Below are positions 500 through 42,187 of a DNA stretch of 64,000 nucleotides, one piece after another (the stretch's first letter is position 1; each line of letters starts with the position of its first letter). The position numbers and the translations under genes were made by a program. This DNA comes from an uncultured Elusimicrobia bacterium. Lineage in GTDB: Bacteria; Elusimicrobiota; Elusimicrobia; 2-01-FULL-59-12. The notes beneath the pieces are model-generated. The model saw only the letters and a program-made list of their open reading frames with translations. It was not told the DNA's origin and made no database searches. Where the stretch lies: assembly GCA_964604825.1 (NCBI GenBank), contig CAZSAL010000010.1, forward strand, positions 2,141 to 66,140, in the 5' to 3' direction.

Positions 500-529
500 C
501 CGCCGCCAACGAGGGCAGAACACTTATAT

Positions 530-3396: not shown

Positions 3397-3409
3397 ATTA
3401 ATACCAGTC

Positions 3410-5533
3410 CTATCGTTTCAGAGGAATGTCAAAACCAAAGCTAGCGCCACCCAATTCGCCAGGCTGAATCAAATGCATTTTCCCGTCATATTGTGCGACT
3501 AATTCAGATGCGACGGTGAGACCCATGCCAATGCCATCCGGCTTCTTAGTGACCCCCGGCCAGAAAATCCGTTCTTCGTCTTCATGATCTATTCCAGGTC
3601 CTGAATCGTGAACTTTAATATAGAGTCGTTCTCCGTCAGATATTTTTTTAGCTCCCACTTTGATTTGGCGTTTATCTGGACCCACTTCTGATAACCAGTA
3701 AATTGCATTTGTTAGCAAATTCACGAGAATGGTTGATAGGTCGGCTGGATCAATTGCAACGATTTGAGCGGGGAATTCTTTCATACTAAGGCTGATTTTC
3801 AATTTATCTATATCCGGTTGATTCATAGCGACACATTCTTCCATGATGGTCTTTGCATCGCAATTCCGGAGTTGCTTACTTTGACTTCGATTGGCCAATG
3901 GCGCAAATGTGTTCGCTAAGTGTTCCAAAGTGTCAACTGCATGCTCAGCTAACCGAATATTTTTTTCATACGGCTTGAGAGCCTCGCTTTGATCTTCAAT
4001 GGCTTTTAGAAGCAATCGATTCAACTTGCTGATTGCGAGCAATTGATTCCTGACTTCATGAACGATAGTCGCAGCCATTATCCCAAGGCTTGCCAGACGA
4101 CTGTAATAAACAAGCCTCTTCTCAATTTGCTTGATTACTTGTTCCTGTTCGGCGGCAAACCGTTGAACAGCAGATACTAATTCTGCTGGCCCGTTCTTTT
4201 CTTTTGAAATTCGCTCAATTGTTTCCACCATTTCGCGAGGAGACAGATTCGAAAACAAATCTTTAAATGGCGGCTCCTTGTGCTTGGCTCCTTGACGGTC
4301 AGAATCTCGTTCTCGTTCAAGAACAGGGAATAATCGCGTTTTGAAAATTTCGCAGAATTGGCGAAATGCCTGATTATCTTCAAGTCTTTCTCGATCACTG
4401 GTGTCTTTAAGACGACGATTCTTATCCGCAGATATGGCGATATACCCAATAATCTGGTTTGTGCTCAGACGCACACCAACCCGACTAACTCGACGAAGAT
4501 CGATTCCCATCCAGTCGATCGCCGATCCAGATTTAGGAAGGACTAAAATTCCATCGCGGTAAAGAGAGATCCCTGACTGGGCTTTTATCGTGTCGCGAAC
4601 ATCCTTTCTGTCTAGATGGAGTTCTCCACTAAGATCTTCGAGCTCGCCAAGTGCGATATCCCAAACTCTTAATTCAAATTCAAATGGTCCACATATGAGA
4701 TCCTTTTTCCTGCGCTGAATTGGATCAGATGACGTAGTCAAGACATCCAAAGTGAATGGGACACTCCTTTTCTTCACTCGTCTACTGAAACAATATTCGG
4801 CGATTATCTTACCCGAATCATCAACCTTACCCTTTAACAAATAAGGTGGGTTCTCCAAGAATGCAGGAGGATTAATTTCAAGAGGGATGGAGCCTCCTTC
4901 GGGCAATGTTAGCCGTATTGAAAAGTTGTCCAATTGACGGAATGGTGGGATTAGCCTTGCTAGACACTCGCGCAAATTAGCAAATTCGTCTTGATCCCAT
5001 TCAGTCTTTAGATCAATAATGCGCAAAATTGTACCCGTGGAAGAAAATGGGCTCTCCTCAACCTCATCTACCCTTATCTTATACGAGTCGATATCTTCAG
5101 CGCTCTCCAGCGTGTCCCAGCTAACGTTAAATCTGAAGCAAGGACTGGCCTGTGCTTTCGTTATTACTTCAATTTCCTTTCCCAAACGAGCGGAGGACAA
5201 TCTGCCCAATCCCTTTTCTCCAGAGACACGTCTTTTCATCGCGCCTGACTTCATAAATGGCATCTTAAGGCGATACGGTGTGGCCACCACTGCCCAAACA
5301 TCCTGGATAATTTCTCGCGTCATCCCAGTTCCGTTATCTTCTATTTCGACCGCCATTGTCCCGGAGGTATTCCGAATGAACCGAACATCCACGCGTGTAG
5401 CTAAAGCATCGTAGGAATTCTTGACGAGTTCCATGATTGCGACGATATCACTGGTTACCAAATCCGCTCCTAGCGCCGCAAAGACACGAGGATGCATCCT
5501 GAATGTGACCTGGTTGTTAATTGGAGTGTTCAT
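3410..5533 (-). CDS. cytoplasmic sensor histidine kinase with an N-terminal MORC/HATPase_c_3-like GHKL ATPase domain (GHKL - linker - HisKA - HATPase_c)
   Basis: N-terminus: Bergerat N-box ELVKNSYDA, G1 EDNGTGM and G2 GEKGLGRLS, which is the HATPase_c_3/MORC type. C-terminus: H-box ATIVHEVRNQLLAI, N-box LLTNAIYW, HDSGPGID and GIGMGLTVA, a classic histidine kinase catalytic core. I found no hydrophobic TM stretch. Local GC is lower than in the core genes. Confidence 0.75.
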   Translation of the reverse strand: MNTPINNQVTFRMHPRVFAALGADLVTSDIVAIMELVKNSYDALATRVDVRFIRNTSGTMAVEIEDNGTGMTREIIQDVWAVVATPYRLKMPFMKSGAMKRRVSGEKGLGRLSSARLGKEIEVITKAQASPCFRFNVSWDTLESAEDIDSYKIRVDEVEESPFSSTGTILRIIDLKTEWDQDEFANLRECLARLIPPFRQLDNFSIRLTLPEGGSIPLEINPPAFLENPPYLLKGKVDDSGKIIAEYCFSRRVKKRSVPFTLDVLTTSSDPIQRRKKDLICGPFEFELRVWDIALGELEDLSGELHLDRKDVRDTIKAQSGISLYRDGILVLPKSGSAIDWMGIDLRRVSRVGVRLSTNQIIGYIAISADKNRRLKDTSDRERLEDNQAFRQFCEIFKTRLFPVLERERDSDRQGAKHKEPPFKDLFSNLSPREMVETIERISKEKNGPAELVSAVQRFAAEQEQVIKQIEKRLVYYSRLASLGIMAATIVHEVRNQLLAISKLNRLLLKAIEDQSEALKPYEKNIRLAEHAVDTLEHLANTFAPLANRSQSKQLRNCDAKTIMEECVAMNQPDIDKLKISLSMKEFPAQIVAIDPADLSTILVNLLTNAIYWLSEVGPDKRQIKVGAKKISDGERLYIKVHDSGPGIDHEDEERIFWPGVTKKPDGIGMGLTVASELVAQYDGKMHLIQPGELGGASFGFDIPLKR

Positions 5534-5633
5534 GCTTTTTGGTAAAGGACCTCATTTTGTAATTTTTCGAAGCTCCGAGTGCTCCATTTTTTGGAGGACG
5601 TCGCGCAGGTACGGTTTCCCCGCCCCAATCTTC

Positions 5634-6050
5634 TCAGACTAACCTTTTACGAATCCGACTCATAACCATTTCGGGATTTTTCTTTATATCATGTTCCCAT
5701 ATTCGAATCACATGCCATCCATTCCGCCTCAACTTGGCACTGACTCTTCGATCTCGTCTTCTATTTGTCCGTAATTTTTCAGCCCAGTAAACGCTATTGC
5801 TAGCTGGTTTTAGGTTCCTGCGACATTTCGTGCAGCCATGCCAAAAACATCCATCAATGAAAACCGCTAATTTTGCCCCCGGAAATGCAATATCTGGCCG
5901 ACCAGGCAATTTCGAAAGATGGCGCCGCCACCCCACGATTCTGTGACGTCTTAACATGCTGACAATCACGCGCTCAGTGGATTGGTTATTTCGGCCTTTT
6001 ATTAAAGCCATCACAGCAGAACGCTTGGCTCGGGTGAAAATATCCGCCAT
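5634..6050 (-). CDS. vsr: very short patch repair endonuclease (Vsr)
   Basis: DIAFPGAKLAVFIDGCFWHGC...WHVIRIWEHD is the Vsr signature (FxDGCFWH, catalytic D, C-terminal H). It sits next to C5-methyltransferase genes, as expected for a T/G mismatch repair partner. Confidence 0.85.
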   Translation of the reverse strand: MADIFTRAKRSAVMALIKGRNNQSTERVIVSMLRRHRIVGWRRHLSKLPGRPDIAFPGAKLAVFIDGCFWHGCTKCRRNLKPASNSVYWAEKLRTNRRRDRRVSAKLRRNGWHVIRIWEHDIKKNPEMVMSRIRKRLV

Positions 6051-6058
6051 GCTCTAAC

Positions 6059-7174
6059 CTACGGTACGACGATATAGCTTGCCGGTCGGCGACGCACCAA
6101 TAGATTGATCAGTTTTTTCAGTGGCGGGCAGACCGGGCTCCTTACCATATCTTCGAAACTAGGTTTCGTTTTGCCGTCCTTCGGAGCGGCGGAAATAGGC
6201 CCCGAATACAATTTCCCTTCAACTAAATCGATAACGTCTTTCGGCTTTCTAAAACTTTCGGCGTAGGAGAAACTGAGGAGATTTACTTCCGACGTTATCT
6301 CGGACAGGAATTTATAAACATCAAGAGCTGTTGTAGCGCTGATATATTTGACGAGCACGTCTTGAACTATCCAGATCGTTTTGCCGCCCCAAGCGATCCC
6401 CACCTCGGATTTCACAATAAGTTGGCTGACCATACGTGCCCAGACCTGCCGATAATTTATGCCCGGAGCGCTGTGCTCTCGGCCTAAAATCGCATCCTCA
6501 AAGGCCATAGGGATCGTCGTCCGTTTTGTCTTGTTGCCGCCAGAAGTACTGGACGTCATTATCTCTATAACGGCCGGTATCCCTACCGGCGCATCGTCGA
6601 CGAAATAGGCGTTACCTCGTTTAGCGATGGTGTAACCCTCTCTTTCAAAATGAGGTTTTAGAAATCCCCATTTCTCACCAGTTGAATTTTCGATCTCTTC
6701 CTGGCTGGAGACACCGAGAGGCATCAATATGTAGTCGAATGTATAATCAAAGGCTTTCTCAACACCATTGATCTTCTCGACATATTTAAGTTTAACTTCG
6801 GGCCAAATGCCCAGCCGTGTGCCGGATTCGTATCCGCATAAACTCAAGACCTTGTCCTCAACTTGGCGTTGATGGGCACGCCTTTCCGCGCTATCTCTCC
6901 CAAGAGCCAGGAGGCGACGTGGGCATACGATCCAAGGCGCATCGTCTTCGCGCATTTGAAGCGAACAAACGCCGGAGCAGACTTTCTCCTTACCAGTACC
7001 GAAAAATCGTTCAAGCGCTTTATTGCCTGATATGACTACATCGGAGAGGTATCTATTACCCCCACCGTCGCACTCTCGGTTCATGAAAGGACAGAGAGCC
7101 GATTGTCGATTACGAGTGGCTTCTTTGGAAGTATCTGCTACTGGATATCCGTAGAGTTCGAATATTTTTGCCAA
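6059..7174 (-). CDS. putative type II restriction endonuclease, NotI-family-like, with a Cys-rich N-terminal metal-binding cluster
   Basis: The N-terminus has ALCPFMNRECDGG...VCSGVC...IVCPRR. This Cys4-type cluster and the FELYGYPV lead-in are reminiscent of NotI-like enzymes. It lies between a C5-methyltransferase and vsr, in an operon with an ATGA-style overlap. The assignment is from memory of the family, not a search. Confidence 0.5.
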   Translation of the reverse strand: MAKIFELYGYPVADTSKEATRNRQSALCPFMNRECDGGGNRYLSDVVISGNKALERFFGTGKEKVCSGVCSLQMREDDAPWIVCPRRLLALGRDSAERRAHQRQVEDKVLSLCGYESGTRLGIWPEVKLKYVEKINGVEKAFDYTFDYILMPLGVSSQEEIENSTGEKWGFLKPHFEREGYTIAKRGNAYFVDDAPVGIPAVIEIMTSSTSGGNKTKRTTIPMAFEDAILGREHSAPGINYRQVWARMVSQLIVKSEVGIAWGGKTIWIVQDVLVKYISATTALDVYKFLSEITSEVNLLSFSYAESFRKPKDVIDLVEGKLYSGPISAAPKDGKTKPSFEDMVRSPVCPPLKKLINLLVRRRPASYIVVP

Positions 7175-8346
7175 TTAGGTGTTCCCAAGATCGCGAGGGC
7201 TATCGCCTTCGCAACAGGCGGCGGAACCGAGTTAGCAACTTGACGGTGCTGGTCAAGCTCGCGTACGCTGCCTGATCTTCCCCGGATAGGTCCTTTCAAA
7301 TGATAGTCATCTGGGTATCCATGCAATCTCATGTATTCCCGAGGAGTCAAATATCGATCTTCTGTTGGATGGAAGAAAATCTCACCACAACGAAGCGTCA
7401 AGGATGGTTGTTTCCTAGATAGCCGACGAAATTTCGTCGTATCTTTTTTGGATAGTCTTCCCCGCTGTTTTGCCGGAAGATGATGTTGGGCGGATAGATG
7501 ACCTCCTTCTGGTACTCCACGAATGCGCTTATAGTCCCCGTCAGGCGTGATATCGACGTGACTATCCGCAAATTGCGCCCCGTCAGATTTTCGTCTAGGC
7601 TTAGGCAATCCAGCCAGGACCCGCCCAGCCGTGACGAAGGGAGGAAGGGGAAATAGAGTCATCTCGGTTTCGGGGTCCGCATGGGTTGGGGAAGGAAAAA
7701 CGAAACCGTTCGGCTTAGGAATAGCGACGGTAATGACACGTTGACGTAGTTGAGGCACTCCGTACTCCGCGGCATTTACCACTTTCCATTTCGGGACATA
7801 TCCCAAGCTCGAGATTTCCCCCAAAAACATTTCGAATACTCCACCAGGCTTTCCGGTATGATCCGGCGCATTGAGCAATCCCTTAACTTGCTCTACGATG
7901 AGGGCTTTTGGTCTAAGGACCTTTGCGAATCTGGCAATCTGAAACAACAGCATGCCTCGTTCGTCGCTCAAGCTCTCACGTTTGCCAATCTGAGAAAAAG
8001 CCTGGCAGGGCGGACCTCCAAAAAGCAAATCAAGCTCCCCAATTTTTAAGCCCAACTCTTTCATGAGATTCTCAGGATCAATCGTTCGAATATCCGCTTG
8101 GATCACCTTCGTCTTTGGGCTCTTTTTTAAGAACGAGGACCTCAACGTTTCGCAACAGTTGGGGTCCATTTCTATGCAAGTCAATATCTCGAACCCGGCT
8201 TGATGAACACCGAGGTCCATGCCACCCGCTCCTGAAAATAGCGAGATTGCCGTATATGAGGTTTTGGGGTTCTTTCGAATTGTCTTTAAGATAGGGTCTG
8301 CTGTCGCGAAAGTCATATCATTCCTCCAAGGATTATATATAGGCAA
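7138..8346 (-). CDS. DNA (cytosine-5)-methyltransferase
   Basis: Motif I ISLFSGAGGMDLG, PCQ motif IV LLFGGPPCQAFSQIGKRE, motif VI ALIVEQVKGLL and motif VIII QLRQRVITVA, with a large variable target-recognition region. Confidence 0.85.
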   Translation of the reverse strand: MPIYNPWRNDMTFATADPILKTIRKNPKTSYTAISLFSGAGGMDLGVHQAGFEILTCIEMDPNCCETLRSSFLKKSPKTKVIQADIRTIDPENLMKELGLKIGELDLLFGGPPCQAFSQIGKRESLSDERGMLLFQIARFAKVLRPKALIVEQVKGLLNAPDHTGKPGGVFEMFLGEISSLGYVPKWKVVNAAEYGVPQLRQRVITVAIPKPNGFVFPSPTHADPETEMTLFPLPPFVTAGRVLAGLPKPRRKSDGAQFADSHVDITPDGDYKRIRGVPEGGHLSAQHHLPAKQRGRLSKKDTTKFRRLSRKQPSLTLRCGEIFFHPTEDRYLTPREYMRLHGYPDDYHLKGPIRGRSGSVRELDQHRQVANSVPPPVAKAIALAILGTPNWQKYSNSTDIQ

Positions 8347-8563
8347 GTAGCGTCCGTTAAGAGCTTTCTGCCCAGAGACACCAAAGACTTCTTATATATT
8401 AGAGTCGAAAAGCCGAAAAATATTCATTTACTGACGGAAAAGCACGGTTCAGGTGGGTCCTCAAGCAGACGGTCGGTTTCGAAATATAAAACGAGGGAAG
8501 AGGACTCAAAACCTCGGATGGGTTCGCCCTTTCCGTTTTCTGAACACGTTGGGGATGGGGAAC

Positions 8564-8758
8564 CTATAGCAGAATCGACGGTCGGTTCCGACTCTCTCCG
8601 GCTTCCAAGTCTTCCATGTTGTCGTAAAGAACAACCACTTCCTCACTGATCGCGATCACCTTCCCGCTCTTAAGCGTGACCAAGTCCAATATGGTCCCAC
8701 CACCCGAATCCCAAGAGGAAACATCTTCGACATACTCAGCCTTCAGTGCATCATTCAC
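8564..8758 (-). CDS. small hypothetical protein (64 aa)
   Basis: ORF only, in the gap between the island operon and tRNA-Ser. No recognisable motif. Confidence 0.2.
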   Translation of the reverse strand: MNDALKAEYVEDVSSWDSGGGTILDLVTLKSGKVIAISEEVVVLYDNMEDLEAGESRNRPSILL

Positions 8759-8808
8759 TGGATGACCTCCTACTAGATAGCATTACGACTATTTCAAGAA
8801 AAATAAAA

Positions 8809-8895
8809 CGGAGGGAGAGGGATTCGAACCCCCGGTACCCTTTCGGGTACAAACGATTTCAAGTCGTTCGCTTTCGACCACTCAGCCATCCCTCC
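8809..8895 (-). tRNA. tRNA-Ser (anticodon TGA)
   Basis: The reverse complement reads GGAGGGATGGCTGAGTGGTCGAAAGCGAACGACTTGAAATCGTTTGTACCCGAAAGGGTACCGGGGGTTCGAATCCCTCTCCCTCCG. It has a 7-bp acceptor stem, anticodon stem AACGA/TCGTT with loop CTTGAAA giving anticodon UGA, a long variable arm (Ser type), a GTTCGAATC T-loop and discriminator G. CCA is not encoded. Confidence 0.85.
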
Positions 8896-9020
8896 AAAAA
8901 TTTGTTTACAACTCCATGCAGCCGACTTTACAGCCACATCGTACAAAAGCGTAAAACTCGGTATCACTCCGTTTCACTTCTCTGAATGAACAGGTGCGGC
9001 AGCTTCGGCCTTTCATTTAC

Positions 9021-9060
9021 CTTCAAGTCGTCCGCTTTCAACCGTTCCCAACCTCCAAAA
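9021..9060. repeat. degenerate duplicate of the tRNA-Ser 5' half plus 5 nt of its flank (about 80% identical)
   Basis: ttcaagtcgtccgctttcaaccgttcccaacctccaaaa aligns with ttcaagtcgttcgctttcgaccactcagccatccctccaaaaa at 8862-8900. Confidence 0.4.
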
Positions 9061-9065
9061 TCATT

Positions 9066-10214
9066 TTATCCAAGGCGCAGACCTGGGATCTGTTTTAATC
9101 CGATGGCGGTGACGCGTTCCGACAATGGAAATGAATGATCCCCCGGATAGACGATCCACAAATGCGAGAGACGGAGGTCCTTTAAGACCACATGAATCGA
9201 TTTCGTGAGACGCGGGGTCTCGGACACTTTAAACTCGAATCCCCATCGGCGGCTTCCCCGCGGCACAAAAAGATCCAGTTCCGCGCCGGCATGCGTCGCC
9301 CAGAAATAGACATCGCGTTCGCCGACAATCTTGAGAATCTGCTCGATGGCGAATCCCTCCCATGATGCGCCCAGCTTCGGATGCGCCTGAAGGTCCCGCC
9401 AAAGAGAAAACCTCATCAGGCTGTGGAACAACCCCGAATCCCGGATATAAATCTTGGGCGCCTTGACGACCCTTTTCCCCATATTCTCGTGCCACGGCGC
9501 CAATTGCCGAACCATGAAGGCGCCGCTCAATAAATCCAGGTAATCCCGAGTCGTCGTATGGGCCAGGCCCAGAGAGGCCGCGATCTCCGACGCATTCCAA
9601 ACCTGTCCATGATAATGAGCCAACATGCTCCAGAATCGACGCAGTTTTCCCGCCGGAATCCGAATGCCCAGACGGGGAATGTCACGCTCAAGAAAAGTGC
9701 GGATAAAATCGTCCCGCCACTGGAGGCTTTGGGACTCCGCCCGCGCCAGGAAAGACCCTGGAAATCCTCCCCGCAACCAGAGCTTTTGTTGGGCGCCCGG
9801 CCCCACCTCGTCCAGCGTAAATCCTCCCATATCTACAAAATGGATCCGTCCGGCCAGAGATTCCGAGGCGCCGCGCACCAGGTCAGGAGAAGCGCTCCCC
9901 AAAAGTAAAAACCGAGAGCGTCTGGGTCTGCGGTCCGCCAGCCCGCGGAGGACGCCGAAGATGTCAGGGCGAAGCGGAACTTCATCGAGGATGACAAGCC
10001 CCCGGAGCCCTTCCAGCGCCGTTCGGGGGTTTTGCAGCCGAGCATCATCGGCCGGATTCTCAAGATCGAAATAATGGCTTGCTTGACCCCGGGCGGCCTG
10101 TCGGGAGAGGGTGGTCTTCCCGCTTTGACGCGGGCCCAGGAGCGCCGTCACTGGATAATGATGGAGTCCCTGAGAGAGCCGGCGTGACAGCCGGGAGCGT
10201 GGGATAAGCGGCAT
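9066..10214 (-). CDS. AAA+ ATPase of the AAA_14/DUF4143 family
   Basis: Walker A GPRQSGKTTL, Walker B-like VILDEV, and the characteristic C-terminal DUF4143-like region (FWATHAGAELDLFV...). Confidence 0.7.
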   Translation of the reverse strand: MPLIPRSRLSRRLSQGLHHYPVTALLGPRQSGKTTLSRQAARGQASHYFDLENPADDARLQNPRTALEGLRGLVILDEVPLRPDIFGVLRGLADRRPRRSRFLLLGSASPDLVRGASESLAGRIHFVDMGGFTLDEVGPGAQQKLWLRGGFPGSFLARAESQSLQWRDDFIRTFLERDIPRLGIRIPAGKLRRFWSMLAHYHGQVWNASEIAASLGLAHTTTRDYLDLLSGAFMVRQLAPWHENMGKRVVKAPKIYIRDSGLFHSLMRFSLWRDLQAHPKLGASWEGFAIEQILKIVGERDVYFWATHAGAELDLFVPRGSRRWGFEFKVSETPRLTKSIHVVLKDLRLSHLWIVYPGDHSFPLSERVTAIGLKQIPGLRLG

Positions 10215-10381
10215 GGGGAGATTCTAGAAAACTGAGCCCATGGTAATCAAATTTCAAGGAAGATGCCGGGGACATGAACCCCCTGTTTTTTTGGCGTTCC
10301 GGCTTCGGTGCAGCGATGGTTTTGGGCCCGCTAAAATTGAGCCCGGGGGCTCTCCGCAACGTCAGTTTAATTTTATTCCAT

Positions 10382-10663
10382 TCACTGCTGTTTATCGTAC
10401 TGCTCTTCGATAATCTTCAGAGACCCGGTGACAGAGGCATTTTCGCTAGGCAGACAAATGACGCGATCTTTTCCATACTCGCTGCGTAAAACAGTAAGCA
10501 CTTCATCCAGCCAGGAAGGACCCACGGCAAGAACACCGCTGAAGTCGAGCTCAATTCGGTCGCCCGGCTGCGGTTTGAAATAAGCTTTGATAGCCAGTCC
10601 GGCTTCCCGACCCGAAGGCCTGGACGTCAGGATTTCTCCAAACTTTCTCACTTCAACTTTCAC
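10382..10663 (-). CDS. STAS-like DUF4325 family protein
   Basis: A ~90-aa protein (ELDFSGVLAVGPSWLDEVL) of the type that follows HATPase-type ATP-binding proteins. It overlaps the upstream gene by 4 nt. Confidence 0.55.
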   Translation of the reverse strand: MKVEVRKFGEILTSRPSGREAGLAIKAYFKPQPGDRIELDFSGVLAVGPSWLDEVLTVLRSEYGKDRVICLPSENASVTGSLKIIEEQYDKQQ

Positions 10664-11436
10664 TGCAACCCCCAGACTAAAAGGGTGACGGTGCCTTCAA
10701 CGTTGCCAAAATGCTTATCTAAAACAGTTGCGCACTTCTCCCCTTGTTCACCATAAAATACACGGCCAGTTCCAGAAACACAGGCTAGGCCACAATTCGG
10801 ACTGGTCGAAACAGTTTCTCTGACAAACTTAAGTCCGTTGCCGCGCTGCTCCGGAGCACGGCCAGAAATATTGGTTTCAAATGCGGCTTTCACAGCTGCA
10901 TGTTCATCTGCCAGATCAGGAAGAACCTTGACCAGGGACCGGAATATTCCTTGTCCCCTGTCAGCGATGCAGATCCAGAACCTCCGTCCAGTGATCTGCG
11001 ACTCGAACCAGCAGCCGGGAACGTCCCTCCACTGCCCGATATTATGGTCGAACGAATTATTACCAACTTCGCCAGCCGTCGAAATAACCAGAGGCAAAAG
11101 GTTTTCCTGCAGTCCGTTTCTGACAAAAGATTTCAGATGAGGCAGTCTGGCAGTGAAAATATCACGCGTCTCGCATACCAGTGACTCCGGACTTTTGGGC
11201 GCAGCCTGCTCACTCATCCATCCGGAAGCCGCTCCGAAATCCGGTACCCCGGCTAATGCGTAATGCACCAAAGGAGCTGACCCTTTGGCCTCAATAATTC
11301 CTTGCTCTGTGAGATCCTTTAAATGACGGTGAATAGCCTGAGCAGAAATGTTCAAGGACTTCCGTAAATCAAAAGGCCTGATTTTTCCGCTTTTCTCAAT
11401 TATTTCAAGGATTTGAGCTCGTGTATTTGTTTTCAT
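10660..11436 (-). CDS. winged-HTH transcriptional regulator fused to an anti-sigma-factor-like HATPase domain
   Basis: N-terminal wHTH (LNISAQAIHRHLKDLTEQGIIEAKG). C-terminal Bergerat boxes GEVGNNSFDHN (N-box), ICIADRGQGI (G1) and RGNGLKFV (G2). Confidence 0.6.
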   Translation of the reverse strand: MKTNTRAQILEIIEKSGKIRPFDLRKSLNISAQAIHRHLKDLTEQGIIEAKGSAPLVHYALAGVPDFGAASGWMSEQAAPKSPESLVCETRDIFTARLPHLKSFVRNGLQENLLPLVISTAGEVGNNSFDHNIGQWRDVPGCWFESQITGRRFWICIADRGQGIFRSLVKVLPDLADEHAAVKAAFETNISGRAPEQRGNGLKFVRETVSTSPNCGLACVSGTGRVFYGEQGEKCATVLDKHFGNVEGTVTLLVWGLQ

Positions 11437-11440
11437 TATT

Positions 11441-11480
11441 GATAGTTTATAGTATACTATGAACTATAAACTATAGCAAT
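11441..11480. promoter_or_regulatory. AT-rich inverted repeat (tagtttatagt-N9-actataaacta) immediately upstream of the wHTH-HATPase gene. Candidate operator.
   Basis: A perfect 11-nt inverted repeat a few nt upstream of the start codon at 11436. Confidence 0.3.
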
Positions 11481-11497
11481 AGCTAATTATACAGGCC

Positions 11498-11776
11498 TTA
11501 TTTTCCTGAACGGCGTTTTCGCAGGACAAGACGTATCGCTATCCAGGGCGCCAAAAAGAACAGATAAGTGAATACTTTTGCCAGGCCGAGGCCGCAGTAG
11601 GCAACCAGGGCGCATTCGTGCGGCGAGAGGCCGAACCACTGCTGGCCCTGCCGGTAGACCAAACCCGTTCCCCACTTGAATACGCCGAACCAGATGCTGA
11701 TAAAAACAATACCGATCAAAAAACAGCGCCAGAGGATGCCGCTGACGGCATCCAGCAGTTCGTTCAGGTCGTTCAT
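11498..11776 (-). CDS. small membrane protein (2 TM), hypothetical
   Basis: Hydrophobic helices WRCFLIGIVFISIWFGVF and CALVAYCGLGLAKVFTYLFFLAPWIAI. Confidence 0.35.
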   Translation of the reverse strand: MNDLNELLDAVSGILWRCFLIGIVFISIWFGVFKWGTGLVYRQGQQWFGLSPHECALVAYCGLGLAKVFTYLFFLAPWIAIRLVLRKRRSGK

Positions 11777-11806
11777 GCTCCCCTCCTGTTAAGGGACTTC
11801 AGCTTA

Positions 11807-12103
11807 TCAGGGTTTTGTTGTCTTATCCGTAGTGGTCCCGCCGATTTGCGTGATACCCATGCCGAGAAGCCGGTTCAGGAATCCCGGCAGCGAGTGCCAG
11901 TCCTGCGCGGCGCTGTTGACGTTAGTCACCGTGGAGCCCGAGGGCACGCGCTCGGCCGCCAGGACTTTCGGATCTTTGGGAATCTGAAGAAAAAACAGAT
12001 TCATGGAATAACCGGTAGCCGTAAATCGCTTATTGTACTGCTGCACTTCGGAACAACCTGCCAACAGAACACCCGCTACAATCAGTAAGCCCAGGTAACG
12101 CAT
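11807..12103 (-). CDS. lipoprotein, hypothetical
   Basis: Signal peptide with lipobox LLAGC (MRYLGLLIVAGVLLAGCSE). Confidence 0.45.
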   Translation of the reverse strand: MRYLGLLIVAGVLLAGCSEVQQYNKRFTATGYSMNLFFLQIPKDPKVLAAERVPSGSTVTNVNSAAQDWHSLPGFLNRLLGMGITQIGGTTTDKTTKP

Positions 12104-12204
12104 GATGCCTCCCTTTTATTTAAGGATACGGCTGATTGACCGGCGTATTCTATATATTTTTTGTGTTATTGCCGGCCCAGGGAGCAAGGCGGAGAAGCAT
12201 GAAT

Positions 12205-12798
12205 TTATTGATCGAAAGCCTTAAGTACGATCTCTTCGGCGCGGCGAAGCCAGCCCGCGCGCTGTTCCGGCGTGCTTATGATCACCATGCTGAAGGTTTC
12301 GCGATAGACTTTTTTCACTCCGCAAAGGTCGAAGATGCACCGCTTCCAGAGCGTTTCCAGCGGATCGCCGAATGCCGCGAGCTCGCGGTCGGGCGGCGTG
12401 TTTGCGGTATTGAATACCACTGCTGACTTTGCGCGGAGCAGGCCTACAGGCACTCCTTCGCCCTTATCATTAGTATCAAAGCGATAGGCCAGGCCCATGC
12501 GCAACACGCGGTCCACCCAGCCTTTGAGGATCGCGGGGGGCTGCCCCCACCAGTTCGGATGGATAATAACAACGCCGTCCGCATTCACAATTTCGCGGCA
12601 TTGTGAATCGATGTCTTTCGGTACGGGCAGCGTCGTATCCAGTTCTCCTTTTGTGAAAAGAGGATCAAACTTCTCCGCATAAAGATCGTGGAGCTTCGGG
12701 TTATGGCCGTTTTTTCGGAGCGCTTCCGCGACCGTGCGGGCAATGGCATGGTTGAAGCTTTCCGGATTGGGATGGGCCAGAATAATGGAAATGTTCAC
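12205..12798 (-). CDS. NAD(P)H dehydrogenase (quinone) / flavodoxin-like fold (Flavodoxin_2) protein
   Basis: MNISIILAHPNPESFNHAIA...VVIIHPNWWGQPPAILKGWVDRV is typical of the NQO/azoreductase-like family. Confidence 0.75.
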   Translation of the reverse strand: MNISIILAHPNPESFNHAIARTVAEALRKNGHNPKLHDLYAEKFDPLFTKGELDTTLPVPKDIDSQCREIVNADGVVIIHPNWWGQPPAILKGWVDRVLRMGLAYRFDTNDKGEGVPVGLLRAKSAVVFNTANTPPDRELAAFGDPLETLWKRCIFDLCGVKKVYRETFSMVIISTPEQRAGWLRRAEEIVLKAFDQ

Positions 12799-13253: not shown

Positions 13254-14072
13254 TTAGAAGTCTATGCCCATGCCTAATCCCATATAGCTTTCCTGCTGGG
13301 TATAGAACTGCCCGAAGATGGAATGCCCGGTGAAATAACTGCCGAACACGCGGAATTTGCGGGGATTGCCGGCAAATCCCACAGCCAGACCGATCTGCGT
13401 ATTGGAGTTGACGTTCCATTTGACTTCCTGTTTAGACTGGACGTCTTCGCCGAGATAGGCAAAAAATTCAGTAGTCCCTGCGCCGCGCCACAGCGGGCTG
13501 CGCAATTCGAATCCTGTCTGCAGCGTCACGGTTCCAACATTTGGATCAGTATGAACCAGCTGCGTTTCGCCCGCGTAAAAGCGGGTGAGCCTCCAGGGTT
13601 CTACCGCAAACATGCTCTGGAAACCTTCGCGGCTGTAGGGAATCCTCTGCATGCCGGTCTGCTCTATGAAAGTGTCTCCCAGATGGCTGCTTTTGTGAAA
13701 TCCCGTAAATCTGGCGGAATAAATCCCGTGGCGCACCTCGAACGGCACGTTGATGATCAAATCCAGCGCTTCCATGGCGGCGGGATTCGAAAGAATGAAA
13801 CGGGGAATTATAACTCCGGATACGTCCAGCTGCAGCGGCCAGTCGTTCTTTTCGCCGGCATCCCAGCGCCTGATTCCCCAGTTGTTGCCTACGGAAAAAT
13901 CAGTCGTGTCCTGGCCCTTGAGACGGAAATACTGTCCTGCGGTCTGGACTTCTTCCGGATCCGCTGAAATTTTCGGGAATATGCGCCCTCCTTCAGGAAA
14001 CCACTGGGCGGAAACAGGCATCGTGAGGAATAAAAAAATAAGTATTGACGCAGGGAAGACAGGAAAACGCAT
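13254..14072 (-). CDS. putative outer-membrane beta-barrel protein
   Basis: N-terminal signal peptide (..TMPVSAQW), alternating amphipathic strands, and C-terminal ..GMGIDF ending in an aromatic residue. Confidence 0.45.
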   Translation of the reverse strand: MRFPVFPASILIFLFLTMPVSAQWFPEGGRIFPKISADPEEVQTAGQYFRLKGQDTTDFSVGNNWGIRRWDAGEKNDWPLQLDVSGVIIPRFILSNPAAMEALDLIINVPFEVRHGIYSARFTGFHKSSHLGDTFIEQTGMQRIPYSREGFQSMFAVEPWRLTRFYAGETQLVHTDPNVGTVTLQTGFELRSPLWRGAGTTEFFAYLGEDVQSKQEVKWNVNSNTQIGLAVGFAGNPRKFRVFGSYFTGHSIFGQFYTQQESYMGLGMGIDF

Positions 14073-14126
14073 GCCCGTTAGACGCCGATATGCGGCGACA
14101 GGTTGCTGTTTGAAGCGGTTAGGATG

Positions 14127-14207
14127 CCATTCCCGAAATATGTTATCGGGAATCTAGAAGTTCCCATGAAAAAGGCTGGGGCCCCCGATAACAAAATTCG
14201 GGGGCGA
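14127..14207. repeat. two-hairpin repeat element, copy D (attcccga-N9-tcgggaat ... cccccga-N9-tcggggg), intergenic
   Basis: Read directly. It lies between two minus-strand secreted/outer-membrane protein genes. Confidence 0.45.
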
Positions 14208-14226
14208 CATCAACGGAAAACGTCAT

Positions 14227-14913
14227 CTAGTCTCTTATGCGGTTCTCCTGGTATGACTGCGCCGGCCCGCTGACTACGGCGTGCTTGTTGCCGGGCAATC
14301 CCGCCTGCGTGTAGGGCACCACGACTTTGAATCCCGGATCCAGATAATAGCGAACGCGGTTTGTCTGCTGAACGCCGCCGTCAAGCTTTGTCAGCCATTG
14401 TTCGACACAGGCCTGCGGCATACCTTCGGTAATGGCTGAGGCAAGATCTTTGATTTCTTTGGTCCGGGATTTCATGTCGCCCTGCCGCCAATCAACCGGA
14501 TTGAACCACTTCACGGTCGCCGCATAGGACTGGAAGCCGCCCAGTTTCAGGCTGAGGCGATGCTTCCCCGCAGCAATTGCGGGCGTGTAATCGTCCGCTG
14601 AAAAGCATCCTTCCCAGTCGCCCTTGGGCGCAAGCCCAGGCGGGCCGCTGAAAGCGCCTGTACGGTTAGACGGCTGCCCATCAATAATCAACTCCGAAGC
14701 GGAAACCCAGCCGGCAAGATCCGCGGGCGTGTAGGCGGGATTAAATACATGAACATAGATCAACTGATTGAAAGAGGATGGGTGGCTTGTCCCTACAATC
14801 CGGACCGTCAGATTTTTTTCATCGGCAAAAGCCCCGCCGGAAAGCGGCAACGAACAAAGAAGAAAACCCAGTGCAATTATTCTTGCAGCGCTGCGATACG
14901 AATTAATATCCAT
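14227..14913 (-). CDS. secreted hypothetical protein
   Basis: Signal peptide ...SGGAFADE. No recognisable domain. Confidence 0.45.
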   Translation of the reverse strand: MDINSYRSAARIIALGFLLCSLPLSGGAFADEKNLTVRIVGTSHPSSFNQLIYVHVFNPAYTPADLAGWVSASELIIDGQPSNRTGAFSGPPGLAPKGDWEGCFSADDYTPAIAAGKHRLSLKLGGFQSYAATVKWFNPVDWRQGDMKSRTKEIKDLASAITEGMPQACVEQWLTKLDGGVQQTNRVRYYLDPGFKVVVPYTQAGLPGNKHAVVSGPAQSYQENRIRD

Positions 14914-14925
14914 ACCATAATAATA

Positions 14926-15720
14926 CTACTCGGGGCGGCGGGGTTCGCCTATAGTCTCGCGGGGCAGGGTTCCCGGAGATTTGGGAAACGTAAATCCATA
15001 TGTTAACCCCGTAGTAAACTGCCAATCGTCTGCGCCGCTGGAAAGCCCCCTGCGGACCCCTGCGTCGAAGAAAAGATCCGGCCTGGGCGATTCCCAAATG
15101 AGGCCCAGGAGGCCGGAGTTATTGGGGAGAAACTCGTGCTGCCCCTGCCCGTCGATTTCGCCCACGATCCGCAGCTTTTGGGTTATGGGACGCTCGGCAA
15201 TCGTTCCCCAGGAAACGAACCCGTCCTGATCAAACTGGTCCACACCGCCGCCAAGGTTAATGTGAAAAGTCATTCCAAGCAGGCGGTGGCTCCAAATGCC
15301 GGTTTCCTGAAATCCCACGAAGTGTTCCCCCGGCTCGCCGGACGGAAGCAGGAGCGCGGTTTCAAAGGCGACGCTGTCTCCGGGCCGGTCCTGCAGGAAG
15401 CCTTCCTTCGCTACAACCTTAAGGTTCAGTTCGTTTTCCCCCACATGAGTCGACGCTCCATTGGTCCTGTTCACATTGAATTGGCCGACCGCTTCCATCC
15501 CATCCCAGATGCCGTAGTTGATCACTACCTGCGGAATGGTGTAGGTCGTGGCATCCCCGTTTCGGGCCGCATTGAAATACCCCAGCTCAGTTTCGACTTC
15601 GTGCAGGCCCGCGACTGCCGCGTCAGTTGCGATAAAAGGCCGGTAAGCATACGCCGCGCCCGCTCCGGCAAAAATAATCGCCGTTATTATTTTTAGTCGC
15701 CTCATAAGCATCGCGCACAT
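14926..15720 (-). CDS. outer-membrane transporter-like protein (MetA-pathway/phenol-degradation-like beta-barrel family)
   Basis: Signal peptide followed by the YRPFIATDAAVAG...ETELGY motif characteristic of that family. About 265 aa. Confidence 0.5.
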   Translation of the reverse strand: MCAMLMRRLKIITAIIFAGAGAAYAYRPFIATDAAVAGLHEVETELGYFNAARNGDATTYTIPQVVINYGIWDGMEAVGQFNVNRTNGASTHVGENELNLKVVAKEGFLQDRPGDSVAFETALLLPSGEPGEHFVGFQETGIWSHRLLGMTFHINLGGGVDQFDQDGFVSWGTIAERPITQKLRIVGEIDGQGQHEFLPNNSGLLGLIWESPRPDLFFDAGVRRGLSSGADDWQFTTGLTYGFTFPKSPGTLPRETIGEPRRPE

Positions 15721-15766
15721 TATACCGCGACGGGAACTTACCGCATGGGAACGTTATAATGAAGTT

Positions 15767-17161
15767 GTGACCTCCAGACACAAAGTCTTCATCGTTACGC
15801 TTGGGTGCGCCAAAAACACGGCGGACACCGATAACCTGACGCGCCTGCTCAAGGCGCGCGGCTGCCTTATCGCCGCAAACCCTGAAGAGGCGGATGCCAT
15901 CATTGTTCACACCTGTTCTTTCATCGAAGCGGCCAAGAAGCAGTCCATCGAAGCGATACTGCAGGCCGGCGGCATCAAGACTGGAAAACAGAAATTATTC
16001 GCAACCGGGTGTCTGATCCAGCAGCACGGCGCCGAACTTTTCAAGGAGATGCCCGAGGTTGACGCTTTCCTCGGTACCGGCCAGCTCGCGCAGATTCCCG
16101 GCCTGCTGGAGAAACCGCGCAATCGCTTTATCAACCGGGCCCGTCCCGGCGGCTTCATGGACGCCCCACGACAGTCAAAAAATGCGGATTTCGGAGTGTG
16201 GAGTTCGGAATTAGGAATTTCTAACAAAAACAACCTGCTTCCACATTCCGCATTCCACATTCCGCAATTCCCAAAAGCGAGTGCCTACCTGCGTCTTTCA
16301 GAGGGCTGCAGCCATCCGTGCTCGTTCTGCGTCATCCCCCGAATCCGCGGGGCGGTGCAGAGCCGCAGCGAAGATGCGATCCTGCGCGAAGCCCGCGAGC
16401 TTGCCGAGCATGGCGTCGAAGAATTCAGCGTGATTGCCCAGGATACGGGTGATTGGGGCAGGGATACCCGGTCCCGGAACCGTCTGCCGGAGCTGCTGCG
16501 CGCCATAGGGAAAATCCCGGGGGTACGCTGGGTGCGCCTGATGTACATGCACCCCGCTTCATTTTCAGATGATCTGCTCGAAGTTTTCGCGGAACAACCG
16601 GATAAATTCCCATATCTGGATATGCCGCTGCAGCATATAGACTCACAAATTCTCTCCAGGATGAGGCGCAAAATCGACGAGAAGAATACCCGGCTGCTGA
16701 TCGAACGGGTACGAAAACGCGCGCCCGATCTCAGCCTGCGGACAACTTTACTGGCGGGATTCCCCGGAGAAACAGCGGCCCAGTTCAGGCGTCTCGTTGA
16801 GTTTGTGAAGGAGGGGCACTTCGATTATCTGGGAGCTTTCGCTTATTCTAGGGAGGAAGGGACCGTCGCCGGCAGGATGCCCGGGCAGATTTCACAGAAG
16901 GTAAAGCAGGAGCGCCAGACCACTTTGACCGATGCCTATTATGATACGGCCCACACCAGGGCGCAGAAACGCATAGGCAAGGCGGAGATTATCCTGATTG
17001 AAGAAACCGAAGGGAACGAAGTGCTCGGGCGCACCCGCAGGGAAGCGCCGGAAATTGATGCGATTGTCAGGCTTCCTCAAAAAGCTGCGCGCCGCGGACG
17101 TTTTGTCACAGCAAAACTCACCGGCTACGATGCCTTTGAGTATACGGCCCAACCTCTTTAA
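15767..17161 (+). CDS. rimO: ribosomal protein S12 methylthiotransferase RimO (MiaB-like radical-SAM methylthiotransferase) with a ~30-aa in-frame insertion
   Basis: N-terminal MTTase domain LGCAKN, radical-SAM CSHPCSFC, and a C-terminal TRAM domain. The extra segment NADFGVWSSELGISNKNNLLPHSAFHIPQFPK is encoded by a heptamer-repeat inverted array at 16183-16272. Confidence 0.8.
   Translation: MTSRHKVFIVTLGCAKNTADTDNLTRLLKARGCLIAANPEEADAIIVHTCSFIEAAKKQSIEAILQAGGIKTGKQKLFATGCLIQQHGAELFKEMPEVDAFLGTGQLAQIPGLLEKPRNRFINRARPGGFMDAPRQSKNADFGVWSSELGISNKNNLLPHSAFHIPQFPKASAYLRLSEGCSHPCSFCVIPRIRGAVQSRSEDAILREARELAEHGVEEFSVIAQDTGDWGRDTRSRNRLPELLRAIGKIPGVRWVRLMYMHPASFSDDLLEVFAEQPDKFPYLDMPLQHIDSQILSRMRRKIDEKNTRLLIERVRKRAPDLSLRTTLLAGFPGETAAQFRRLVEFVKEGHFDYLGAFAYSREEGTVAGRMPGQISQKVKQERQTTLTDAYYDTAHTRAQKRIGKAEIILIEETEGNEVLGRTRREAPEIDAIVRLPQKAARRGRFVTAKLTGYDAFEYTAQPL
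16183..16272. repeat. inverted array of tKYggaR heptamers (tgcggat ttcggag tgtggag ttcggaa ... ccacattccgcatt ccacattccgcaatt), in-frame inside rimO
   Basis: Left and right arms are reverse complements of each other's heptamer units. The tandem ccacattccgca(a)tt x2 is read directly. Confidence 0.5.
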
Positions 17162-17172
17162 AGATTTGCGCT

Positions 17173-17262
17173 GTCATCCCCGAATACCGCTATCGGGGAT
17201 CCATAAAATTAAAAATCCTCTATAACGACAAGGATTCCCGATTACGACCTCGGGAATGACAT
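17173..17262. repeat. two-hairpin repeat element, copy A (tcatccccga-N9-tcggggatcc ... attcccga-N8-tcgggaatgaca), downstream of rimO
   Basis: Read directly. Homologous copies at 30216-30290, 54622-54692 and 14127-14207. Confidence 0.55.
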
Positions 17263-17274
17263 GGGGGGGGCTGG

Positions 17275-17703
17275 TTACTCACCACTATACGTAGCGGCAA
17301 CATGGTAGTACAGCTTCGTGCCGCAGGGCAGACGTGGATCCATGTAGGAAACTGCTTGGCACAACGCCATTCCGTCCAATTCTTCGCGGCCCTCTTTCAG
17401 CATGGCGTCAACCGCGTCAGTCAAAAGAAAAACGCCTTTTGAGCATGCTCCTTCGCAAGTAACATTCAGCAGAAAGGGCTCGTCCAGATCGATGTTGCGG
17501 CGGCTTTCGTTGAGCACAGCGTCCGAGGCCGTAACCAGGCGGAATTCCACCCGCAGTTCCTGGATACGCGGGAAGCGCGAGCGGAGAGTACCCGCGTGCA
17601 GAACGTCGCGCTCGGCCGCTTCGCTGCGCGAAACTTTGAGTTCATTTTTATTCTGGGGTTGGCCGGCACGGCGCCGCTTGCGTGCGGCATAGTTCGGCGG
17701 CAT
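17275..17703 (-). CDS. hypothetical protein
   Basis: ORF only. Cys residues CEGACSKG...C...C. It lies downstream of amtB-glnK on the same strand. Confidence 0.3.
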   Translation of the reverse strand: MPPNYAARKRRRAGQPQNKNELKVSRSEAAERDVLHAGTLRSRFPRIQELRVEFRLVTASDAVLNESRRNIDLDEPFLLNVTCEGACSKGVFLLTDAVDAMLKEGREELDGMALCQAVSYMDPRLPCGTKLYYHVAATYSGE

Positions 17704-29087: not shown

Positions 29088-29161
29088 TGGCCCGTACGGG
29101 ATTCGAACCCGTGGTCTTGTCCTTGAGAGGGACACGTCCTGGGCCACTAGACGAACGGGCC
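29088..29161 (-). tRNA. tRNA-Glu (anticodon CTC)
   Basis: The reverse complement reads GGCCCGTTCGTCTAGTGGCCCAGGACGTGTCCCTCTCAAGGACAAGACCACGGGTTCGAATCCCGTACGGGCCA. Anticodon stem TGTCC/GGACA with loop CTCTCAA, and T-loop GTTCGAATC. It is followed by the palindrome gtcgccagacgtctggcgac. Confidence 0.85.
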
Positions 29162-30205: not shown

Positions 30206-30215
30206 CTATTTCTCC

Positions 30216-30290
30216 GTCATCCCCGAGGACTTAATCGGGGATCCAGCTATTCTACAACTGGATTCCCGCTAACGACATGCGGGAATGACA
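30216..30290. repeat. two-hairpin repeat element, copy B (tcatccccga-N8-tcggggatcc ... attcccgc-N9-gcgggaatgaca), between rmuC and the VanZ gene
   Basis: Stem 2 differs from copy A by a compensatory pair (a/t to c/g). Confidence 0.55.
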
Positions 30291-30295
30291 ACTGT

Positions 30296-30667
30296 TTAAG
30301 GGATTATACCAAGGGCCAGCCAGCCGCCGGTGGTGTCGATCATGACATCCGAAATACAGCCATGACGTCCCTGGGTGAAAGTCTGATGGTATTCATCAAG
30401 AGATGCGTAAAGAAACGTCAGGACAAGCGCCGCGGCAAAGATTTTTTTCCACGACAGATACGCGGTGTTTATGAATGCTCTTGCGATTAAACGCGCCAGA
30501 ATGCCAAACACGCCCATATGTCCGGCTTTGCGTATCCAGAAATCCCACGGCCCCTGCACAAACCGCAGATCAGGAATGCTGGAAAGATAAAAAATGAAAG
30601 CCGCCCACGCCAGAACCGGCAGCCAATACTTCACTAAGGGAAGAACTTTTGACGGTCTGCCTGTCAT
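30296..30667 (-). CDS. VanZ family protein
   Basis: 4-TM protein with the VanZ-like motifs DKAGHMGVFGILA and SLDEYHQ. Confidence 0.7.
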   Translation of the reverse strand: MTGRPSKVLPLVKYWLPVLAWAAFIFYLSSIPDLRFVQGPWDFWIRKAGHMGVFGILARLIARAFINTAYLSWKKIFAAALVLTFLYASLDEYHQTFTQGRHGCISDVMIDTTGGWLALGIIP

Positions 30668-32630: not shown

Positions 32631-32765
32631 CTCCTTCTCCCCTCGGGGGAGAAGGCGGGGATGAGGGGCGGTTCATCGCGGGCGATCCCCTCACCCAAAC
32701 CTCGCCAATACTTCCGGCGAGTCGCCGGACGTCTGGAGCCCTCTCCCCAAAGGGGCGAGGGAGTG
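32631..32765. repeat. intergenic cluster of GC-rich palindromic repeats (ccttctcccc-tc-ggggagaagg, ggatgagggg...cccctcaccc, ccctctcccc-aaa-ggggcgaggg) that also contains tcgccggacgtctggag
   Basis: Read directly. It lies between the GT4 start and the amidase stop. ORFs 32392..32694, 32447..32803, 32496..32843 and 32612..32794 are translations of this repeat. Confidence 0.6.
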
Positions 32766-42152: not shown

Positions 42153-42187
42153 ACCCGAGCTCCTTCAAGCGGTTGTAGTGCATTGTC

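Follow-up and report, generated by a model that had tools for sequence, protein, structure and literature searches.

What is the paired hairpin that recurs along a 64,000-nt stretch of DNA (hereafter the window) probably derived from an Elusimicrobiota bacterium, and to which class of repeat or RNA does it belong? The original prediction, made from the sequence alone, described a conserved two-hairpin element at several loci and offered three readings of it: a repetitive extragenic palindrome (REP)-like repeat, a terminator or mRNA-stabiliser family, or a family of small structured RNAs. We find that the repeated element is real, statistically secure and slightly larger than first noted. In tag, stem and tail, as in its dimer arrangement and its location, it corresponds to the CGTC-tagged REP superfamily (PMC3733652), which bears out the first of these readings. 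The interpretation that we consider probable is that the window elements are dimers of CGTC-tagged REPs, acting as a dispersed, non-autonomous DNA element of the copy-and-paste type. They are thus an ordinary genome repeat of an already described, widespread family and no new RNA gene; new here are the long loops, the re-compensated stems and the probable Elusimicrobiota host. That assignment of the host is suggested by RimO, encoded beside one of the copies, whose best named relatives (54-61% identity) are found in Elusimicrobiota metagenome-assembled genomes (MAGs). The source-genome DNA covered comprises the window and ~3.5 kb of flanks, some 2.3 kb on one side and 1.2 kb on the other; the window belongs to the 88-kb JGI metagenome contig Ga0455670_0002290.

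The window was scanned with the strict pattern ATYCCCG-loop-CGGGRAT, using 200 dinucleotide-preserving shuffles of the same DNA as control. Seven perfect hairpins were found, compared with a mean of 0.01 and a maximum of 1 in the shuffles. A covariance model of the single unit (R1), trained on the window units and long-loop relatives and run over the whole window with filters off, returned 10 units that make up five dimers, with no singletons and with E-values from 3e-11 to 0.05. The four copies first reported (14127-14207, 17173-17262, 30216-30290 and 54622-54692) were all recovered at those coordinates, and the predicted "four or more" loci became five with a new dimer at 61961-62041. If the window is representative, five dimers in 64 kb correspond to ~80 per Mb.

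Each unit is ~33 nt long and consists of a 5′ tag (C/T)GTC, an 8-bp stem (mostly ATYCCCGM/KCGGGRAT) enclosing a loop, and the tail CCA. In every dimer found with R1 a plus-strand unit is followed by a minus-strand unit, giving (C/T)GTC-ATYCCCGM-loop-KCGGGRAT-CCA...spacer...TGG-ATYCCCGM-loop-KCGGGRAT-GAC(A/G) with the tags outward. Since the two units are inverted, the whole element is an imperfect palindrome. The five dimers are as follows:

Dimer A, 17172-17261: left unit 17172-17204 (plus strand), TGTC-ATCCCCGA-loop-TCGGGGAT-CCA; right unit 17230-17261 (minus strand), TGTC-ATTCCCGA-loop-TCGGGAAT-CCT; spacer 25 nt; R1 scores 46.4 and 41.9 bits. It fills the convergent gap between the stops of rimO (17161) and of a 142-aa open reading frame (ORF; 17275), 10 and 13 nt away.
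Dimer B, 30215-30290: left unit 30215-30246 (plus strand), CGTC-ATCCCCGA..TCGGGGAT-CCA; right unit 30258-30290 (minus strand), TGTC-ATTCCCGC..GCGGGAAT-CCA; 46.2 and 51.1 bits. It lies 5 nt past the stop of a VanZ-like gene (30296-30667, minus strand), and the ATG of rmuC (30205) follows 9 nt on.
Dimer C, 54621-54692: left unit 54621-54652 (plus strand), TGTC-ATTCCCGA..TCGGGAAT-CCA; right unit 54665-54692 (minus strand), TCTC-ATCCCCGC-GTAT-GCGGGGAT-CCA; 43.6 and 29.8 bits. It sits in the middle of a 200-bp gap between the divergent starts of a TP_methylase gene (54556, minus strand) and ndk (54757, plus strand).
Dimer D (diverged), 14125-14209: left unit 14125-14157 (plus strand), TGCC-ATTCCCGA..TCGGGAAT-CTA; right unit 14176-14209 (minus strand), TGTC-GCCCCCGA..TCGGGGGC-CCC; 31.4 and 22.9 bits. 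It begins 17 nt past the stop of a 228-aa ORF (14227, minus strand), and the start of a DUF1207 gene (14072) follows 52 nt on.
Dimer E (the new copy), 61961-62041: left unit 61961-61993 (plus strand), CGTC-GTCCCGGC..GCCGGGAT-CCA; right unit 62009-62041 (minus strand), TGTC-GCCCCGGC..GCCGGGGC-CCA; 27.0 and 16.3 bits. It overlaps folD by the final 7 codons and the stop (62021), and an NHL/TPR gene starts 17 nt on (61943).

The description of a two-hairpin element with shared stems and variable loops needs some refinement. The hairpins are present, but they are two inverted copies of one unit, which can alternatively fold as a single hairpin. The stems are shared by most units, the second hairpin of dimer D having a stem of its own (GCCCCCGA). 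The loops do vary, yet a weak consensus exists, and the right unit of dimer B matches a unit in a Nitrospirae MAG (L046; L labels denote loci from elsewhere) at 32/33 positions. Dimer E resembles the others in tag, tail, loop length and arrangement, and its stem changes are compensated.

Evidence that the pairing itself is maintained comes from the stems. In an alignment of 34 units, we considered pairs 3 and 8, the two stem pairs left free by the pattern used for selection. Pair 3 is U-A in 20 units and C-G in 14, and pair 8 is C-G in 20, A-U in 13 and U-G in 1, so that both are paired in 100% of the units. The observed covariation score was reached by none of 500 shuffles, and controls with slid alignments collapse. 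The same was seen beyond the window, in an exact-pattern two-hairpin scan of one genome per GTDB species that returned at least 120 stretches (these and all later unit counts are among the matches listed): the Y/R pair of 268 units in other genomes is T-A in 214 and C-G in 54, with no mismatch. In the window, all ten stems are 8 bp long and perfectly paired but for one G.T. The compensatory pair by which the original prediction had argued for selection on secondary structure, ATTCCCGA..TCGGGAAT in the right unit of A and ATTCCCGC..GCGGGAAT in that of B, is correct, and the covariation backs such selection, or at least maintenance of the structure. Three units have re-compensated stems (D-right, GCCCCCGA; E-left, GTCCCGGC; E-right, GCCCCGGC) with tag, loop length, tail and arrangement kept. 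This long-loop variant thus indicates which parts are constrained, namely the tag, the stem pairing and the tail. Compared with shuffles, all five dimers have far more favourable predicted folds on both strands (z = -3.6 to -5.2): two REP hairpins with a small spacer hairpin, or a single long hairpin; because these folds are nearly equivalent, "two hairpins" is one of two possible descriptions.

The family to which these units belong was defined by Di Nocera, De Gregorio & Rocco (2013, BMC Genomics 14:522; PMC3733652). CGTC-tagged REPs carry a terminal CGTC (or TGTC, CCTC) and the tail CCA, with loops of 4-5 nt and stems of 8-9 bp, nearly all of which open with A-T, T-A. Most form inverted dimers with spacers of 20-100 bp, the ends of which are often complementary, and they are placed near 3′ ends, in gaps between convergent or unidirectional ORFs. 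The superfamily takes in known repeats, since dRS3 of Neisseria is CGTC-1, and RPE-6 and RPE-4 of Rickettsia are CGTC-1 and CGTC-4, respectively (PMC3733652). Among the ten window units, the tag is CGTC or TGTC in 8 (the exceptions being TCTC in C-right and TGCC in D-left), the stem starts with AT in 7 (D-right, E-left and E-right begin with GC or GT, compensated), and the tail is CCA in 7 (CCT, CTA and CCC in the remainder). All five elements are inverted dimers with the tags outward; the flanking genes are convergent in one case, unidirectional in three and divergent in one. The published feature that the window units lack is the loop length: the loops are 8-9 nt long in 9 of the 10 units, C-right alone having 4 nt. 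Exceptions in loop length within families are acknowledged in the defining paper (PMC3733652), and the long loops therefore mark a variant and do not exclude membership.

Two other origins were considered and dropped. A Neisseria source is not supported, given that DNA uptake sequences (DUS) or uptake signal sequences (USS) are absent from the window. Integron attC sites and CRISPR repeats were dropped because GTTRRRY/RYYYAAC cores and a regular spacing of direct repeats are lacking and the copies have no integrase or cas genes nearby.

The GTDB scan matched the dimer pattern in at least 120 stretches of genome, and these span many phyla. The matches listed include Alpha-, Beta- and Gammaproteobacteria, 'delta' groups, Magnetococcales, Patescibacteria (Parcubacteria, Falkowbacteria, Sungbacteria), Omnitrophota, Nitrospirae, Planctomycetota/Brocadiia, Bacteroidota, Gemmatimonadota, Acidobacteriota, Zixibacteria, Hydrogenedentota, Dadabacteria, Calditrichaeota, Chloroflexota and Leptospirales. 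Many of them are on contigs of 0.1-4 Mb, and fifteen are from cultured isolates. The 2013 list of phyla comprised Proteobacteria, Chlorobi, Bacteroidetes, Spirochaetes and Thermotogae (PMC3733652), so that the family is now extended to many more phyla than those five and to a probable Elusimicrobiota genome. In its usual form the dimer reads cGTCATTCCCGC-GAAA/GAAG/GCAG-GCGGGAATCCAg ... cTGGATTCCCGC-TTTC-GCGGGAATGACg, and among the 268 units the tag is CGTC in 155 and TGTC in 103, and the tail is CCA in 248. The long-loop form accounts for 31 of the 268 and is hosted by Nitrospirae, Omnitrophota, Syntrophobacteraceae, Dadabacteria, Zixibacteria and Calditrichaeota. Its loops (8-9 nt) are purine-rich at the 5′ side and T-rich at the 3′ side, and its units are nearly identical between the probable Elusimicrobiota genome, Nitrospirae and Omnitrophota. 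A bolder generalization would see CGTC dimers not just as selfish repeats in decay but as a pan-bacterial element, conserved in sequence over well more than ten phyla, Patescibacteria and Elusimicrobiota included, with a mobilising or binding protein as partner from outside the RAYT (REP-associated tyrosine transposase) clade of the GTAG REPs and with the long-loop subfamily as a functional class served by its own conserved factor; we regard this combination as doubtful.

Among viral contigs (IMG/VR), the dimer was found in only 31 stretches of 2.9 million contigs, and this rarity means that phages are not an obvious vehicle. About 10 of the 31 dimer-bearing viral contigs (L130-L160) share a phage-structural gene set and high G+C; assigned by eye, these are probably alphaproteobacterial gene-transfer-agent (GTA)-type clusters.

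Copies of the element are dispersed and non-syntenic. All five window dimers are extragenic apart from the 21-nt overlap of E with the end of folD, an outcome with a chance probability of ~8e-6 for five 80-nt elements. A relative whose RimO is 66% identical to that of the window (L127) has dimers at other sites: one after an RRM gene, and a second (2097-2162) inside a cysN/cysC fusion gene, almost spacer-less (...GGGGATCCATGGATTCCCC...). The latter is 66 nt long and hence in-frame, like Rickettsia palindromic elements. In two further relatives, no dimers were found within 20 kb. Dimers that have a spacer in common are found, in other genomes, amid unrelated flanks and without target-site duplication (L064, L072, L018, L029/L059 and L030). 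Recurrence of whole dimers at different sites, spacer included, indicates that the dimer is the copied unit, as in REPINs.

The resemblance to REPINs raises the question of whether a cognate RAYT, present as a single gene elsewhere in the same genome, mobilises the dimers, and an association of this kind had been proposed. Queries with E. coli RayT and with RAYTs of Neisseria type (tblastn, phmmer), together with a scan for the HUH..Y motif, revealed no RAYT in the window or in ~150 CGTC-containing loci. Di Nocera et al. (PMC3733652) likewise report no transposase linked to CGTC repeats. The architecture of two inverted REPs and a spacer is that of a REPIN, and a preprint (10.1101/2021.07.10.451892) assigns the Neisseria ATTCCCGCGCAGGCGGGAATC repeat to a Group 2 RAYT, pairing a dRS3-type sequence with RAYT NMAA_0235. 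In PLSDB, the E. coli RayT query retrieved an N. gonorrhoeae RAYT (NZ_CP119142.1; L122 2264-3010) with a dRS3 dimer ~140 nt upstream. That gene is, however, directly bracketed by GTAG-tagged REPs (GTAG-GTCGGATAC.. and GTCGGATTC..CTAC or ..GAATCCGAC-CTAC), the dRS3 dimer lying further out.

A profile built from 20 RAYTs led to 80 metagenomic RAYT loci, including ~14 of Neisseria type, and all 80 are flanked by GTAG-type and not CGTC-type REPs. Within 220 nt of the RAYT genes there are 197 GTAG-tagged hairpins, 56 others and 1 that is CGTC-tagged; CGTC units occur in only 2 of the 80 loci, 1.5-2.2 kb from the gene. The cognate repeat of this RAYT clade is thus of the GTAG type. The full set of REPIN features, in which a cognate RAYT (Y1_Tnp, PF01797) accompanies the same REP and near-identical copies surround a master sequence, is only partly seen here. 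The inverted-REP architecture is present in the window and whole-dimer copying is observed in other genomes, not among the window copies, but no RAYT accompanies the REP in the window or the ~150 CGTC loci, and the ten window units differ in their loops and form no master-sequence population. We therefore consider mobilisation by a cognate RAYT quite improbable, and a RAYT link for CGTC repeats is not supported for the clade sampled, other HUH families having been left out. This agrees with the older claim that CGTC repeats have no dedicated RAYT and conflicts with the preprint, in which the dRS3-type repeat of Neisseria is assigned to a Group 2 RAYT.

Some side observations were made on these loci. 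The Neisseria RAYT loci (L122, L161-L175) have GTAG-type REPs, not dRS3, on both sides (GTAGGTCGGATAC.. and GTCGGATTC..GAATCCGACCTAC). The N. gonorrhoeae sequence NZ_CP119142.1 is a 2.17-Mb chromosome labelled as a plasmid in PLSDB, and no RAYT homologues were found in that database on alpha- or beta-proteobacterial megaplasmids.

How, then, might CGTC dimers spread? In the model that we favour, the whole dimer would act as a small non-autonomous copy-and-paste DNA element and would accumulate where insertion is tolerated, mainly just past stop codons and in short intergenic gaps. The hairpin would have to form on the single DNA strand that bears the tag 5′, where a trans-acting enzyme, comparable to the HUH Y1 transposases of GTAG-type REPs but from outside the RAYT clade tested here, could recognise it. 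Once inserted, the hairpins would be transcribed with the 3′ untranslated region (3′ UTR) or intercistronic region around them, and the upstream mRNA may gain stability as a side effect. A hint of the strand requirement is found in units with a single mismatch, where T.G or G.T on the tag strand outnumbers C.A or A.C by 20 to 7. Folding of each unit on the strand that carries its tag could produce such an excess, and would fit a process on single-stranded DNA better than one common transcript.

Several observations weigh against this model. One recurrent variant (ATCCTCGC..GCGGGGAT) accounts for most of the wobble excess, which thus does not reflect independent events, and strand specificity is only a hint. 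No transposase of any kind was found linked to the elements in the window and ~150 REP loci. With RAYTs flanked by GTAG and not CGTC REPs, the mobilisation step rests on analogy. The window dimers are old: their loops differ and their five spacers are unrelated, and they did not arise by recent duplication of a single master. Other assemblies of this population are 100% identical to the window and the nearest relatives only 66% identical in RimO, and consequently no presence/absence polymorphism was found. Finally, near-identity across phyla, as seen here for tag, stem and tail, is not usual among selfish REPs; a conserved host partner could be the reason instead.

The variant behind the wobble excess, GTCATCCTCGC-loop-GCGGGGATCC, has its T.G at stem pair 5, always on the tag strand, and is found in several phyla and in many loci (e.g. 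L021, L035, L040, L044, L056, L079, L091, L106, L112, L147 and L150).

Further searches for a linked factor or for informative comparisons gave little. All-against-all clustering of the ORFs in 120 + 31 loci returned only ABC ATPases, two-component proteins and the viral phage-structural (probably GTA-like) set. The genes enclosed by outward-facing units (L062, L093) are housekeeping genes and not transposases, and among the 120 genome stretches listed we found no orthologous loci at which REP and flank divergence could be compared.

The position of the dimers brings in a different explanation. Some E. coli REPs act at the RNA level, as stabilisers or terminators. Each window dimer might likewise be selected at its site as an mRNA stabiliser in a 3′ UTR or intercistronic region, or as a bidirectional terminator. 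The placement speaks for this: four of the five dimers adjoin gene 3′ ends, starting 5-17 nt after a stop codon or overlapping one, and both B and E separate cistrons of what look like operons. The predicted structures are very stable on either strand, and a like placement bias has been reported for CGTC-1 (PMC3733652).

Other features fit an RNA-level function less well. Dimer C lies between divergent start codons, so that the copies are not all at gene ends, as had been stated. The conservation of tag, tail and stem across more than 10 phyla is not required for RNA stability, the wobble pairs fall on each unit's own tag strand and not on one common strand, and the relative L127 has an in-frame intragenic copy. 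Terminator function, in particular, finds little in its favour: no T-run follows the stems, the sole match to a terminator consensus is a weak one (A-right, minus strand, tail CCTTGTCGTT), and terminator-like sites in the region are no more numerous than in shuffles. In L127, a genuine terminator stands just downstream of the dimer that follows the RRM gene, and hence the dimer is not the terminator there. Overall, site-by-site selection at the RNA level is a tentative alternative that we think less likely than not to hold; it is compatible with the mobile-element explanation, and an incidental RNA-level effect at 3′ ends is possible.

At the tag end of dimer B (30206-30225) we note that its left tag reads GACGGAG on the minus strand and overlaps the likely ribosome-binding site of rmuC. 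This is the only Shine-Dalgarno-like sequence before rmuC, 5-8 nt upstream of the start codon, and the repeat may therefore affect initiation of rmuC translation.

As for a family of small structured non-coding RNA genes, co-varying conserved hairpins at several loci would suit one, but the remaining evidence makes it highly improbable. No Rfam family overlaps the dimers even at E ≤ 10 (positions 14000-17400), and over the whole window the Rfam search at the gathering threshold returned only two tRNAs. The elements are symmetric palindromes with variable spacers and without promoter or terminator signature, coding sequences lie 5-17 nt away, positions are not conserved between relatives, and the same unit occurs in hundreds of unrelated contexts. 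For annotation, the element is accordingly to be entered as an intergenic palindromic repeat of a known class, rather than as a new regulatory RNA, and to be left untranslated by gene callers; we found nothing in the literature on the peptides predicted from spurious ORFs that run across these repeats.

The cross-phylum conservation of tag, stem and tail would also suit a sequence-specific protein partner. E. coli BIMEs, for example, are binding sites for gyrase or IHF, and the dimers could be sites of a nucleoid or topology protein, or attachment or target sites of a recombinase. For the latter there is a precedent in dRS3, a documented phage integration target used by filamentous Nf prophages and a proposed site for an IS110/Piv-type recombinase (PMC1797815). 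No integrated element, IS110-type gene or recombinase lies beside any of the window dimers, however, nor are these enriched in related loci, and co-variation of the stem pairs favours a folded single strand over a duplex binding site. We deem a recombinase or DNA-binding-protein site unlikely.

The window holds other features of note. Palindromic inverted dimers of a second family, unrelated to the first, are present three times; their unit is CCCTCTCCCC-loop-GGGGAGAGGG with (T)AGGGTGAGGGG after it, and the copy in the GT4 glycosyltransferase ORF encodes ...EPPPPLWGRTEVGGTPHPNLPPQGGKE... These and the remaining features are:

32075-32147: second-family copy, in-frame within the GT4 ORF (31512-32615, minus strand), in the linker between two Pfam domains.
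32633-32764: second-family copy, intergenic.
55313-55424: second-family copy, intergenic, in the convergent gap between ndk and the transketolase gene.
45807-45954: nested inverted repeats of GTAACTACAGGGCCGAG-like motifs, with arms of 34-45 nt that are 71-91% complementary, just upstream of a LysM-domain gene (45122-45748, minus strand).
46829-46864, minus strand: possible degenerate single CGTC unit, cCGTC-GCCCCGG-loop-CCGGGG, too diverged to match R1, in the 48-bp gap between a DUF520 gene (46866-47363) and an RNase H-like gene (46347-46817).
1-12300: restriction-modification or defence-type genes (two DNA_methylase genes and those for an HATPase_c_3 protein, AAA_14/DUF4143 and Methyltransf_24).
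40899-43360: type I restriction-modification specificity subunit adjoining a Fic/DOC protein.
8809-8895, minus strand: tRNA gene (Rfam).
29088-29161, minus strand: tRNA gene (Rfam), just downstream of rmuC.

Comparison with known systems places the window dimers as follows. With intrinsic (Rho-independent) terminators they share G+C-rich hairpins just past stop codons, but they lack a U-tract, are conserved in sequence across sites and symmetric, and one of them is in a promoter region. Also comparable are the GTAG REPs and the REPIN-RAYT system (Bertels & Rainey 2011; Nunvar 2010; E. coli BIMEs), which have the same 4-nt unpaired tag and hairpin, an inverted doublet as replicating unit, intergenic location, compensated stems and no target-site duplication. 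The tag differs (GTAG versus CGTC), as do the units flanking RAYT genes, which are GTAG units; moreover, GTAG sequences are lineage-specific, whereas the CGTC sequence is conserved across phyla.

Within the CGTC superfamily, Rickettsia RPE-4 and RPE-6 contain CGTC units and can insert in-frame into genes, as seen for the cysNC copy of L127, but they are longer composite elements, whereas the window copies are extragenic bar the overlap with the folD end. Neisseria dRS3/NIME (Parkhill 2000; PMC1797815) has the core palindrome ATTCCC-N8-GGGAAT (Bentley 2007, PMC1797815) in common with the window units, with GTC before it and CC after it. There, dRS3 forms long arrays interleaved with RS repeats and provides integration sites for Nf prophages; the window has isolated dimers with longer loops and without arrays or prophage. 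The closest likeness is to CGTC-1 as a whole, which has the tag CGTC/TGTC (also CCTC-like), an 8-bp stem starting A-T, T-A, the core ATTCCCGC/GCGGGAAT and the tail CCA, occurs mainly as inverted dimers with variable spacers (complementary ends) near gene 3′ ends, and is not linked to a transposase. From it the window elements differ in their loops (8-9 nt in 9 of 10 units versus the published 4-5 nt), in the three re-compensated stems (GCCCCCGA, GCCCCGGC and GTCCCGGC) and in a host that is probably a member of Elusimicrobiota, a phylum outside the 2013 list.

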